A stretch of DNA of 64,000 nucleotides, from NCBI RefSeq assembly GCF_003790525.1, contig NZ_CP033635.1. One strand, written 5' to 3'. Below are positions 36,001 through 45,000 of this stretch, in pieces. The stretch comes from Escherichia coli (lineage in GTDB: Bacteria; Pseudomonadota; Gammaproteobacteria; Enterobacterales; Enterobacteriaceae). The position numbers were made by a program. The first letter of the stretch is position 1. Each line of letters opens with the position of its first letter.

Positions 36001-39000
36001 ACCATTTCAGCCATGTTTCGGTGATGCGGAAAGTGCTGCTAAGAATGACCAGTTGGATGCATTATCTTTATTTGGATCATTAAATAATATTAATGTATTG
36101 AATCTTGTAAATGTGGTTGAGAGCAAAAAATTGCAAATACAGGACATGAGAATTCGCTGTTCAGGCAGCGAAACTCGAGCCCTTTTTGTCTAGTCCACTG
36201 AGAATATAAACGCTCCTTTGATGCCCAAAAGTGGACATTTAATTATTTCTTTTTACCTTGAGAGAAAACTGTTTCGGTGTAATACCAAAATAGCTCTTAA
36301 AGTTTCGAATGAAATAAGATGTACTGGTATATCCAACATCATATGCAATACTATTAATATGTTTTTCAGTGGATGTAATCATCTTTGCTGCATGATGCAT
36401 TCTGATATCTAACACCAACGCATTAAAGTTATTGTTTTCTTTTTCAAGTTTTTTTCTAATCGAAACCTCAGACATATGCAAAATATCCCTAAGATCCATT
36501 AACTTCCAATTTCTTGATAAATCTGATTCGATAATTTTTTTGATTTTTTCTGTAAAAGTGATATCTGTTGAAACTGATAGTGAATAAACAAGAGGTTCAA
36601 TTTCATGGATTCTGGAAAGTAAATAGGCTATTTTATAAACTTGTCTGTGTTTCGGTAAGTTATTATTAATCAGACGTTTAAAAATTTCTTTATCTGTTTC
36701 CTCAAGGATATAAAAAAATATTTTTTTTCTTATTTGACTCACTAGTTGATGGCCTAAAAGAAGTGGCTCCATAACCTTACACACGCTATTTAATAGATAG
36801 CTATCAATAGTATAGATATCATAAGGTATACCGCTGCCAAGCACTTTTAATGTTGCATCAACGACAAGATTCTTTTCTATATAGCATAAAGAAAAAGGAG
36901 GGATGTTAATAACATCTCCATCTTTTGCTTTAATAACTAATTGTGCATTTCTAATAAAAATCATTGCGCTATTATAAAAACGAATTTTTTTAATGTAAGT
37001 GTATGATTTTTGTCTAGATTTCTATTGACAGAGATGTCAAGCTTTGTACAAGTAACTCGACTATTCATAAAGCCACCTCATGCTTTGTATATATATAATT
37101 CCATGAGTTATTAAGTTGTGTAAACTCGAAAATTCAACGTGAGTTAATTTTAAACAATCTAACAAATAATTAAAAAAACAATGAATTATATGCGTAATGG
37201 ATGTAATCACTATAAGAATAATAATATTATCGTAATGAAATTATGCGTAATTAACGAGTCAATCCTCAGGTTCAATTGTTTGGTTAAAAAAAATTCTTAA
37301 TAATGCGGGTAATTTCCTGGTTGTTTTCATCCCCAACTTAACTTTGATGCGACTGACTCGATAATAGATTTTTTCTTTTGAGAGATTAGTCATTTTTGAA
37401 ATCTCTCTTACACTCTTACCATGAAAATAGAAAAGGTATAAAATCTCCATTTCAATATTATTTAAGGAGTTTATTGCTTCACTTACCGATGCCTTCTTTT
37501 TATGAATGTAGATAGAGTTATGATGTATTCTAATATTATTAGTATCAATACACTTTATCGATTTTCCGGATAACAGAAGACTATATGCATAATAATTTTT
37601 AATATCACAAATAAGATAAATCTCATTTGTATCAAAATCAGCTCTGACTATGTCATCGATTTCTGTAAAATCTATGCATCGAAATGTTTTGTTAATATCA
37701 GATATCAACCGCATCCCGTAATTGAAAAAATTATTATCACTGGCAAGTATAAAGACAAGATTCATACATATCCTAAAATATTATCTTTTATATTATGCGA
37801 CAACTATAAGATAAAGATTTTTTAATATCTACATTAAAAATATAAAGATTTGATAAAAAACTATAACTAATTAACCAGTAAAATAACAATAATTACTTTT
37901 AGTAGAGTTGAGTACTTCAGGTGACGCTCATTATCGTATGCATTTATATAAATGATCTATAATCATTTTTCAGTATAAGGTCGTTTCATGTTGTTGATCT
38001 GTTGAGGAATATTCATTGTCACAATTAAGATATGTTCAAGGTAAATGGTATGTTTTCTTCAAAAAATCCCGACTTCAATAGCAGACAATCTGTTGCCATC
38101 AAAAGAACAATTGAACTTTTACTATAGGCATGTCGTGACAGATAAGATTATGTTGTTAAATACACTCTAAAATTTAAATTTTACTTATCAAAACATTCAA
38201 TTTCCATGAGGATAACTTTAAATATAAATAAATGGCGCAATAAATAAAACTATTTCGTCCTTAATTTGAAGACTATTCATAACAAGCATAAAAAATAAAA
38301 ACATCAAGAATAAAAATGAAAGTTAATTTAGCGTGTGTTTTCTAAATAAAATAAAGAGATATAAAAACCAGATAATGAGGTTTTATTGTTGACCATCTTA
38401 TCTTATGCGAGGTAATTTTTGCGACGTTCATGAACTTCTGGGCATGAACAAATATAGGACTAACCGAATTTGGGGCTAACAATTCTTTAAAGGCTTTAAG
38501 GAGCATTAAATGAAAAAATTGGTTTTAGGTTCAGCTATTCTTGCTGTACTTGGGATGACTTCTACTGCAATGGCTGCAAACAGTGGTACTGTTAATTTTA
38601 CAGGGGCTGTATCCAGCGCAACGTGTGATCTTAAAGTTACAAATGCTTCTGGAGCTGAGATACCTACAGTTGATTTAGGTACTGTATCAACGACGGGAAC
38701 ACCTGCTTCAGTTCAATTTAAGCTTGTTCCTTCAGATAATGCTTGCTTGGCAAAAAATGGAGCCCAGATTAGCTGGACATCAAATAATTTAACAACCCAA
38801 GGTTTTAGCAATGCAACTACGGGGGGAACAAATGCATATATGGCATTACTTACTTCTAATGCCCAAGAAACTGGTGCGAGCTCATATGTTAAATCCGGTC
38901 AAACTACTTTTAACTATCAAGTAACTAGTGGCGGTATTCGATCTTTTGATTACAGTGCTTCGTTAGTTAAACCTACTGGTACTGTGACTCCAGGCGCATT

Positions 39001-42000: not shown

Positions 42001-45000
42001 TGGTCATGATGTGAAACTTAGCGAAGAAACTAAAAATAAGATCGCGGCTTTTGCGCCTTTTGAGAAGGTATCTCTGGGAAGTAAACTTTCAGGAAAAGAT
42101 ATTTCAATTGTTTCTTTTGATGATTATGGCGTAGACCGGGAATATAAACTCTAGCCCAAACCTTTATTATTAAGGAGAATGCTATGCAGAAATTATTATT
42201 TCTTGTATTTACGCTATTTTTTATTTCGCCACATAGTCATGCGGCGGTGGATTGCTCCAGTGGTAGAATTACTCTTGGATATGATAATACGACTACAAAT
42301 TACAATACTTACAACTCTACGCAGAATGGACCCGTTGCTACATTAGTTGCTAATGTATCGCAGAATTTTTCGTGCGGTGGTGATTATATCGAAACAACCA
42401 CTATGAAAAGGAAAAGTTATTTAGTCTTACCTATTACCAGTGGGGGAACTTGTAGTAATGGTGTTTTAACTACTACCATTCCCGGCGTTGTCTGGCGCCT
42501 TGATGGATTTACCTGTTTGGGGAATGGGTTAAAGACCACTAAAGAATTAAACGGCGGTGATACCTGGTCTGGGACAGTAGGGAAACTTATCTTAACACTG
42601 ACAGATGAGTATTGGCGGCAGAATAATTCCACACGAACATTTACTTTACCGGCCCCTTCTCAAGGAAATGTCAAGGGAACGAATGTTAATGTCGTGGTAA
42701 CAGCAAATCCGGCAACCTTGACGCATAAAGTTATGCACTTAGGTAGTTGCTCGATGGCAACAACACCAGTTAATTTGGACTTCGGGACTATATCACCCAT
42801 TGAAATTAATAAAGGAGCTCTATATCAATCTGTTACTGTTACCTGGAACTGCGTTAACAAAGCACTCGCAGTGAATGGTTTTAATTTACGTTTTGATCCT
42901 GAGAATGTTGTTAATGCTAACCAAGCCACTTTTAGTGCCACTGCTACTGATGGTAAAAAACTAAATTTCCAGTTGGTTCAATATAATCAAGGGAAAGAAA
43001 CACCTCCCCAGCTTAATAAAAGCATTCAGGTGTATGCTCCAGTAACGAATGATGTTTACAATACACTTAGTTTAAGAATAAAAGTATTGCCAGCATCAAC
43101 TTATCCCACAGGGAAAGTATCAACGTATTTAACAATTACAGCGACATATATGTAACTGGTGATATTTTATGGGAAAGTGGAAAATATTATTTTGCATGAT
43201 TGCATTACTTTGCAATTGCTGCTATGCGTCGCGAACTATTTCGAATAGAGTAAACATCACGGCGACGATGGCTCTCAACACCTGTGCATTAACGTTAACA
43301 CCAGACAACGTGAATTTTGGTGGAGTACGTATTGATGAGATTGACGCGGCGAGTATTTCTCCGCAGACTGTATCGCTTGCAATGCAATGTAGTTGGCCTG
43401 CTAGCGGGGTATCGGTAAAGTTTGTACCAAAGGATGGAGTTTCCACTAGTGACCCAAATATCATGAAAACAGGACTAGCTGGTGTTGGCCTGGCTTTATC
43501 GTGGAAAAAGAGTACAGCTTCTGACTTTACCAATATTAATTACAATACGTCGTTGCAACTCAATGCTCAGGAACAATCAAGTAATGTGGCATTAGGGCAG
43601 TTTAAACTTTTACCAAAAAAGGTTCCTGAGCAAACAATACAAAGTGGCAATATAGCAACCAGTCTAACTGTCGAGGTTAGCTATGATTAACTCTTTCTGT
43701 AAATATATTCTTATAGCAGTGACTGCGCAGGCTCCTCTCTGGAGTAATAATGCACTTGCTGCACAAACGGCAAGTGCAAACCTACCGATTACGATGGCAG
43801 TAACAAATCCACAATGTACCATTAATAATGGGCAAGGATTACCTGCCACCGTTCAGCTTCCTGTTGTCACAACCGCGGGAGTATTTGCGGATAACAATAG
43901 TACCGAAGTTCCTATTGTTATTAACTGCGCGGGGAGTGTCTCGAAATTTGAAATTACATTAATAGGAGGAACTGCTTCGAAAATCACGACCAGTAATAAT
44001 ATGGTTGATATTGCACTTGTATGGAAACAGGGAGGTTCAGCTGTTCAGTTTGGAACACCAGTAGCTTTAAATAAAGCACCATATCTTGTAAGTAATAAGG
44101 AATTTGATGCTTCGCTAATAGCCACCGTCACACCACATACAGGAAATATACCAGCGGGTATCTATACTGCGAGTTTACCTATAACGTTAACGTACTATTA
44201 ATAAAGTATTGAGGAAGTTATCAATTGGTCCGTATTAATGCTGGGGTTATTTCATTGGTATTAATGTCTGGTTAAATCACTCTTAATAGCGCGCCAGACA
44301 TCTAAAACGAATTATTAAATACATTAAGTTAAAATTTCATCGTAAAAAAATTAGATTATAGCGATATTGACAATGAATTTTGTATATACTCTAAAGTTAA
44401 ATAAAAAAAGAGAGTTGGTTGTAGTATCTGAACTTTCTGGTGGGGTTAAAAAATCAGCTCGAAATAAGCTATTAAAATCTGTTGTTGTTTTAATGACTAC
44501 TTTAGCTACTCAACTCTATTCACCATTAATTCAGGCGTCAATTGTGGGAATGGATATCCCATATCAGACCTATCGTGATTTCGCTGAAAATAAAGGAGCG
44601 TTCTCAGTCGGAGCGCTGGATATTCCTTTGTATAAGAAAGACGGGACGTTGTACTCCACACTGAATAAGGCGCCAATGATAGATTTTAGCGCTGTTGATA
44701 GTGGACAGACAGTAGCTACGTTAATTTCGCCACAATATATTGTAAGCGTAAAGCATAATACTGGCTATAAGAATGTTCGGTTTGGCTACAGAGATGATAG
44801 TTCTTATATTCTTGTCGATCGTAATAATAGTTCTGTAGATTTCCATACTCCGCGTTTAAATAAAATTGTAACCGAAGTGGTTCCGGCTGATATAACCGAT
44901 GCCGGTACTGCCAACGGAACTTATCAAAATCAAGACCGTTTTCCGATCTTTTACCGTGTTGGTACTGGTACGCAATATGTGAAAGACCGTAATGGGAAAT

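Follow-up and report, generated by a model that had tools for sequence, protein, structure and literature searches.

Kfc is a K99-like fimbria of Citrobacter rodentium (PMC3511308). It is directly controlled in that species by RegA, a bicarbonate sensor, and kfcC is the most strongly upregulated open reading frame (ORF) of C. rodentium during mouse infection (more than 700-fold); the fimbria contributes to persistence (PMC6180029; PMC4038620). A second C. rodentium gene, adcA, is coregulated by RegA and bicarbonate (PMC2824692). In Escherichia coli, "K99" has been listed as a sporadic chromosomal type in a fimbrial catalogue (Wurpel et al. 2013; PMC3559732). Here we describe a chaperone-usher fimbrial operon from a 64,000-nucleotide stretch of the E. 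coli contig NZ_CP033635.1 (assembly GCF_003790525.1), which we call the window. We consider it very likely that this is an intact kappa-clade operon, that it represents one branch of the Kfc ("K99-like") fimbriae in E. coli, that it lies within an acquired island of four parts, and that its expression in this strain is probably absent or weak, as the gene for its activator is frameshifted. The literature that we searched held nothing specific to this island. The locus had been catalogued as "K99" before, if the identity that we infer below with a locus of strain SMS-3-5 is correct, while the fimbria itself is uncharacterised. What is new here is a confident two-domain model of the 323-residue subunit, the sharp exchange of cassettes at the genes for the pilin and for that subunit, and the frameshift of the activator gene by a change from eight to seven A residues.

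The operon consists of six ORFs, all intact and all on the plus strand, spanning positions 38510-44201 in the ORF listing of the window. Their order and coordinates agree with a preliminary description of the region, which had given them as pilin, usher (785 amino acids [aa]), chaperone, a 323-aa subunit, and two minor subunits. The genes are as follows, with the identity of each product to its counterparts in Kfc and in the Fan (K99) proteins:

38510..39037, plus strand: major pilin, 175 aa; KfcC (59%) and FanC (37.5%) counterpart
39109..41466, plus strand: outer-membrane usher, 785 aa; KfcD (69%) and FanD (40.3%) counterpart, assigned by the NCBIfam model NF011760, by trees, and by the identity to KfcD
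41474..42154, plus strand: periplasmic chaperone, 226 aa; KfcE (68%) and FanE (47.5%) counterpart, assigned also by the NCBIfam model NF011758
42184..43155, plus strand: two-domain subunit, 323 aa; KfcF (34%) and FanF (22.8%) counterpart
43169..43690, plus strand: minor pilin-like subunit, 173 aa; KfcG (49%) and FanG (26.3%) counterpart
43683..44201, plus strand: minor pilin-like subunit, 172 aa; KfcH (59%) and FanH (31.6%) counterpart

The usher scored 1129 bits against NF011760 (PefC/AfrB usher; cutoff, 752), and the second-best NCBIfam usher model reached 222 bits. The chaperone scored 381 bits against NF011758, a fimbrial-chaperone equivalog model (cutoff, 248). The ORF lister placed the chaperone gene at 41435-42154 (239 aa), whereas RefSeq starts it at 41474 (226 aa, MKKINL...); the latter start, directly after the usher stop, is the more plausible. 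The pilin-type subunits matched PefA and, weakly, the Pfam Fimbrial family, and for subunit G of C. rodentium, the orthologue of the 173-aa protein, the precomputed Pfam assignment is PF00419. For the 323-aa and 173-aa subunits we found no NCBIfam family and only the weak Fimbrial match in Pfam. As read from the ORF listing, signal-peptide-like N termini are present on all six proteins, and all four subunits end in a ...Y-x motif. The last two genes overlap by 8 nucleotides (nt). PADLOC was negative for the region, as expected.

To which clade does the usher belong? We built neighbour-joining trees of 26 to 27 ushers, drawn from the kappa, beta, gamma1, gamma3, gamma4, and pi clades. A kappa set comprising the K88, K99, Pef, and F18 ushers with their relatives, and including the window usher, was separated with 100% bootstrap support from gamma1 FimD, gamma3 Caf1A and AggC, gamma4 MrkC, pi YbgQ, and beta YhcD. 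Within this set, the group holding the window usher was sister to the K99 FanD group (88 to 93.5% bootstrap). These trees place the operon, by its usher, among the kappa-clade chaperone-usher fimbriae in the scheme of Nuccio and Baumler. Genes for a PapD-type periplasmic chaperone and for pilin-type subunits accompany the usher gene, as in that clade, and the clustering with gamma or pi ushers that the preliminary description had named as grounds for rejection did not occur. That description had also set the operon apart from the E. coli core genome, and this held up: it was found in 73 of 5,426 complete E. coli genomes.

K99 is the nearest classical relative. As reference we used the fan operon (fanA, fanB, and fanC to fanH) from a plasmid of enterotoxigenic E. 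coli. The structural genes fanC-H follow an identical order, the best Fan match of each window protein is its positional counterpart (23 to 48% identity), and fanG and fanH likewise overlap by 8 nt. The earlier proposal of a layout mirroring fanC-D-E-F-G-H was therefore borne out. It had been worded as K99/K88-like, and here the K99 half stands, whereas the resemblance to K88 is looser: FaeD is about 31% identical, and the K88 operon is laid out differently. Outside the order of the structural genes, the two systems diverge. K99 is plasmid-borne, whereas the window type is chromosomal in all 73 genomes. The regulators upstream of K99 are the small PapB-like pair FanA and FanB, in place of which the window carries an AraC-type gene and a gene for a sigma/LuxR-type helix-turn-helix (HTH) protein. 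The spacer between fanC and fanD is short and lacks a hairpin, whereas the window operon has one after the pilin gene. Lastly, the pilins differ in the "KKDDR" stretch of FanC, which we take to be the site of the receptor residues Lys132 and Arg136. All Kfc-group pilins, that of the window included, have lost part of this stretch: four residues are missing, among them the Arg position.

The possibility that the operon encodes genuine K99 (F5) fimbriae that bind the K99 receptor can be weighed against this comparison. In its favor are the shared gene order, the position of K99 as nearest classical relative, and the supplement of Wurpel et al. 2013, in which EcSMS35_3926 stands in the kappa/"K99" column (PMC3559732). 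We infer that EcSMS35_3926 is an usher of the window type, because it is the sole kappa entry for SMS-3-5 and the operon occurs in a single place in that genome. Against it stand the low identity to the Fan proteins, the different regulators, the partial loss of the "KKDDR" stretch, and the contrast between a plasmid and a chromosomal location. As identity, upstream regulators, and FanC receptor residues all fail to match, the operon is not K99 proper, and we regard genuine K99 as very improbable. Even less credible is that this is a gamma- or pi-clade operon, or a core-genome operon, with a K99-like gene order by chance. We found no support for it, although the order pilin-usher-chaperone also occurs in K-12 operons such as ybg. 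The usher is only 19 to 24% identical to FimD, MrkC, Caf1A, AggC, YbgQ, and YhcD, and its kappa placement at 100% bootstrap, the gap between 1129 bits for NF011760 and 222 bits for the next usher model, and the presence in only 1.3% of complete genomes together refute this explanation. The reading as a kappa-clade operon of the Kfc type is the one that we retain.

The labels in public records are uneven for two of the subunits. The FanH counterpart is called "hypothetical" in the SMS-3-5 record; on the K99 plasmid, FanG (8951-9475) is labelled "spore coat protein U domain-containing" and FanH "hypothetical." These RefSeq labels of FanG- and FanH-type subunits are annotation gaps for that subunit family.

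We then compared the window with the C. rodentium locus, which we verified with the published adcA cloning primers (PMC4176022); they matched the first 30 and the last 28 bases of the gene exactly. One strand of this locus holds regA (276 aa) and adcA with a 166-aa ORF between them, and the opposite strand holds kfcCDEFGH. The lengths of the kfcC to kfcH products (175/785/233/332/173/172 aa) are near those of the six window genes. All nine C. rodentium genes have a counterpart in the window, where the remaining parts of the island are the following:

36084..48338, no strand: low-GC island with the whole module, between yibH and yibF, delimited by its GC profile and by the SMS-3-5 and K-12 annotation
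36239..37068, minus strand: RegA-like gene for an AraC-family activator, frameshifted; 276 aa when intact, 67% identity to C. rodentium RegA
37259..37765, minus strand: 168-aa protein with a C-terminal HTH of the sigma-70 region 4/LuxR type (NCBIfam sigma-70 extracytoplasmic function superfamily, E = 4e-8); 37% identity to the 166-aa ORF between regA and adcA
44373..48182, plus strand: class-2 serine protease autotransporter (SPATE) of the AdcA type, 1269 aa, directly downstream of the operon; 54% identity to AdcA

By usher identity, the Kfc group forms a compact family: 67 to 100% over E. coli, Citrobacter, Cronobacter, and a Yersinia enterocolitica plasmid, with the next relatives at 44% or less. 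It received 100% bootstrap support in the trees. The window operon thus fits a Kfc-type module by two features, its usher subfamily and its linkage to RegA-like and AdcA-like genes, and its closest characterised relative, as judged from the sequences, is C. rodentium Kfc and not K99. The preliminary description had called the host context unknown; this has been narrowed, as the operon is part of a RegA/Kfc/AdcA-type module. The two loci are also distinct in several respects. In C. rodentium, adcA lies upstream of kfc and is divergent from it, whereas the SPATE gene of the window lies downstream on the same strand as the operon. The chromosomal site differs, and the window operon belongs to a separate subclade of the family.

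In two further loci, too, the operon is accompanied by an AraC gene of the RegA type and a SPATE gene of the AdcA type. The M18-type locus, next to dcuSR, occupies another chromosomal site in 38 of the 5,426 complete genomes. It has the C. rodentium layout, with the AraC gene, an unannotated HTH homologue, and the SPATE gene divergent from the fimbrial operon, and its usher is 85% identical to that of C. rodentium versus 71% to that of the window. The flanks of the M18 locus hold a gene pair for a peptidase-ATP-binding cassette exporter and HlyD, as well as an IS3 remnant. In locus L020, the operon, the AraC gene, and the SPATE gene follow each other in this order on one strand, and locus L019 is a copy of the operon flanked by insertion sequences and without the SPATE gene. 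Homologues of the 168-aa HTH protein, all unannotated, were found in the M18-type locus (L011, 1111-1590) and in Citrobacter amalonaticus (L012, 4482-4958). This distribution marks the HTH protein, at the level of sequence conservation, as a conserved companion of the AraC-type regulator.

The island, very likely acquired horizontally, has four parts: the RegA-like activator, the small HTH protein, the six fimbrial genes, and the AdcA-like SPATE. It measures 12 kb, with a GC content of 27 to 41% versus 52 to 58% in the flanks, and in K-12 the yibH-yibF interval holds rhsA-yibA-yibJ-yibG instead. It was chromosomal in every one of the 73 genomes that carry it. The operon is 100% identical in SMS-3-5 and in about 20 other complete genomes. 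Between the window and SMS-3-5 a single base differs, in the upstream regulator, and between the window and strain CM2 there were no mismatches over 5,066 nt. The exact usher and the exact 323-aa protein each occur on at least 1,000 public contigs. The cluster belongs to a lineage that is common in E. coli and is known from poultry, dogs, livestock, wastewater, and human isolates.

A comparison with the calf strain 32F4, which carries the island at the same site, revealed where the module varies. The nucleotide identity to the window is 98 to 100% outside two sharply bounded blocks:

38547-39146: block 1, pilin gene and the hairpin that follows it; 56 to 73% nt identity, 61% aa identity
42147-43346: block 2, 323-aa gene and start of the next gene; 70 to 87% nt identity

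The block 2 proteins are 72% (323-aa subunit) and 92.5% (173-aa subunit) identical in amino acid sequence, and the divergence between the window and calf 323-aa proteins is even over both domains. In all comparisons, the 323-aa gene was the fastest diverging. The pilins, in turn, are 58 to 67% identical regardless of the distance between the ushers; the calf pilin is 70% identical to KfcC and 61% to the window pilin. Because the blocks are sharp within near-identical islands, and because pilin identity is independent of usher distance, these data indicate that the pilin gene and the 323-aa gene are imported alleles, located at what would be the two most exposed components of the fimbria. Separately, the AT-rich intergenic segment at 37747-38346, upstream of the pilin gene, is 91.5 to 92.5% identical to the calf strain versus 99 to 100% in the flanking genes.

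The 323-aa subunit stands apart from the other three. It aligns end to end with 21 homologues, FanF among them. Residues 21-183 form an N-terminal domain with a beta-sandwich fold, and residues 184-323 a C-terminal pilin domain. Four Cys residues in the N-terminal half (C24, C64, C90, and C111) are invariant in the 21 homologues, and the C-terminal half carries the usual pilin Cys pair (C189 and C223). Residues 184-322 align to the next (173-aa) subunit at 24.6% identity (E = 4e-8) and weakly to Pfam Fimbrial. AlphaFold models of the full-length protein and of the isolated N domain reached predicted local distance difference test scores of 89.5 and 91.5, respectively. The top whole-chain Foldseek matches were CfaE, FimH, FocH, CsuE, PapG, and CupB6 (E values of 5e-7 to 1e-4), with low TM-scores (0.27 to 0.38). 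Two-domain tip adhesins such as FimH, PapG, CfaE, CsuE, and CupB6 have an N-terminal beta-sandwich followed by a pilin domain with the usual Cys pair and lack an N-terminal donor strand. The same is true of the 323-aa subunit, in which the mature chain opens with the N domain at its first conserved Cys and no donor strand precedes it, whereas the other three subunits begin, in the ORF listing, with the alternating hydrophobic stretches typical of donor strands. The modelled subunit thus has a two-domain architecture like that of tip adhesins. A lectin domain had been suggested as a point to look for by structure prediction; the fold of a two-domain tip adhesin was found, but the N domain had no close solved homologue and no convincing lectin homologue.

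On the donor-strand-exchange mechanism, a subunit without an N-terminal donor strand would be assembled first, so we place the 323-aa subunit provisionally at the distal tip, where it is the best candidate for the receptor-binding subunit. The four invariant Cys residues and the conserved core in the 21 homologues argue that the N domain is folded and under selection. A kinship with the F18 adhesin FedF was tried and rejected (profile comparison with the 323-aa family; probability, 0.5%). In a tblastn search of plasmids with the 323-aa subunit, only the Yersinia copy was recovered and FanF was missed at E < 1e-3; the relation to FanF was seen only in direct pairwise and multiple alignment.

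The gene for the AraC-type activator is damaged in the window. A tract of eight A residues is replaced by seven (A7 instead of A8) at 36985-36991. In the A7 form, the gene is split into a 35-codon leader ORF and a 241-aa ORF (36239-36964), which overlap as ATGA at 36961-36964. SMS-3-5 and the calf strain have an intact gene (276 aa), and the CM2 gene, which is identical to that of the window, is labelled "frameshifted" by PGAP. Of the 73 genomes, A7 is present in 43, and another 29 lie within a band consistent with intact A8. The state of the tract mostly follows operon haplotype or lineage, and A7 occurs in both haplotype groups (for example, in CM2 and in 2016C-3878). At least one extra event is implied, because CM2 and the window combine the SMS-3-5 haplotype with A7. 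An A8 tract is also present in C. rodentium regA, where it falls on the same Leu-Lys-Lys-Ile codons, whereas in the M18-type AraC gene the tract is interrupted. The most likely interpretation is that A7 is a lineage-level inactivation of the activator. Because this gene is frameshifted, the fimbrial operon is probably silent or weakly expressed in the window strain, though its fimbrial machinery is intact, and the SPATE is perhaps poorly expressed as well.

Two alternatives bear on these readings of the activator and of the 323-aa subunit. The A7 allele may still be alive, either through reinitiation at the ATGA, which would yield a working 241-aa regulator, or with the A tract acting as a slipped-strand on/off switch. 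The overlap of the leader stop with a downstream ATG would suit reinitiation, and A7 is the majority state, is spread over both haplotype groups, and affects a tract that C. rodentium regA has at the same codons. However, the lineage-bound distribution is what a fixed mutation would give, eight A residues are few for a contingency locus, and Met36 is not conserved in RegA or in the M18-type protein, so that the truncated product is not the ancestral form; PGAP, too, treats the gene as a frameshifted pseudogene. We therefore think a functional A7 allele unlikely and continue to favor inactivation. A stronger contender, which we nevertheless hold to be doubtful, is that the major pilin is the adhesin and the 323-aa subunit an assembly initiator only. 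The major pilins of the nearest classical systems, FanC of K99 and FaeG of K88, have been reported as adhesins. The pilin gene of the Kfc type is replaced as a cassette in the same way as the 323-aa gene, which suggests diversifying pressure there too, and the N domain is without a convincing lectin homologue. On the other hand, antigenic pressure alone can also account for the variation of the pilin, and the 323-aa subunit shows the two-domain build of a tip adhesin, the fastest divergence at every phylogenetic distance, and an N domain with four invariant Cys residues and a conserved core over 21 homologues. The assignment of the 323-aa subunit as the candidate receptor-binding tip is thus the one that we carry forward.

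How the fimbria might be built can be outlined from the general chaperone-usher mechanism and the C. rodentium literature, on which the following steps of assembly and regulation are based. Sec would export the subunits, the 226-aa chaperone would cap them, and donor-strand exchange at the 785-aa usher would polymerise them. As the first, distal subunit, the 323-aa protein would prime assembly; the 173-aa and 172-aa subunits would serve as adaptor and/or terminator, and the 175-aa pilin would form the shaft, its mRNA being kept in surplus by the hairpin that follows the gene. The AraC-type activator, whose C. rodentium counterpart responds to bicarbonate, is expected to be required for transcription.

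Two cis features of the operon were located:

39049..39078, plus strand: GC-rich hairpin with a perfect 12-bp stem, directly behind the pilin stop codon (-23.4 kcal/mol, z = -3.1)
38426..38449, plus strand: 7-bp inverted repeat in the leader (arms at 38426-38432 and 38443-38449), about 60 to 85 nt before the pilin ATG, found by alignment

Comparable hairpins follow the pilin gene in the calf, M18, C. rodentium, and Yersinia loci but not in the fanC-fanD spacer. The hairpin is probably a partial terminator or attenuator, or an mRNA stabiliser, that favors pilin over usher. The leader repeat keeps its position across six variants of the module, and one change in it looks compensatory; in a pair-count test this amounted to a single event, a result matched by 87 of 500 shuffles. 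The repeat may form an RNA stem or serve as a palindromic operator. A promoter scan yielded fewer sigma-70-like sites than in shuffled sequence, with none convincing upstream of the pilin gene.

The comparison ties an unnamed cluster of "fimbrial protein" genes to a fimbria of proven importance in vivo, in the mouse attaching-effacing model. It also leads to predictions: control by bicarbonate and the AraC-type protein, coregulation with a protease that degrades mucin, and a possible role of the tip subunit in the preference for a host or tissue. Natural alleles of the activator gene (A7 and A8), together with two sets of pilin and tip cassettes, offer isogenic-like comparisons. In the typing of virulence genes, the label "K99" for this locus could mislead. 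A bolder proposal, which we put forward only as a speculation with the odds clearly against it, is that the island is a portable unit for gut colonisation, made up of activator, fimbria, and mucin-type protease and tuned by swaps of the pilin and tip genes and by on/off slippage of the A8 tract, and that the N domain represents a new family of receptor-binding domains, present also in FanF. If this were true, the pilin and tip swaps would change antigenicity and possibly the host receptor, and the role of FanF would be reopened.

In the SPATE downstream of the operon, GDSGS lies at residue 257, and the protein can be aligned collinearly with AdcA without any indel of more than 23 residues. Its best sequence matches among solved structures were the class-2 proteases Pic and Hbp (E of about 1e-230); it aligns to the 975-residue Hbp entry 3ak5 in one stretch and to full-length Hbp in two. 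On these alignments, it is a class-2, AdcA-like SPATE, with the S6 protease domain that holds the GDSGS serine, the beta-helical passenger, and the C-terminal barrel expected of that type. Because of its collinearity with AdcA (PMC4176022), its passenger is also likely to be without domain 2.

Outside E. coli, the Y. enterocolitica plasmid NZ_CP124239.1 carries the six-gene operon (usher identity, 68%), with type VI secretion genes, tssB and tssC among them, at a distance of about 2 kb.

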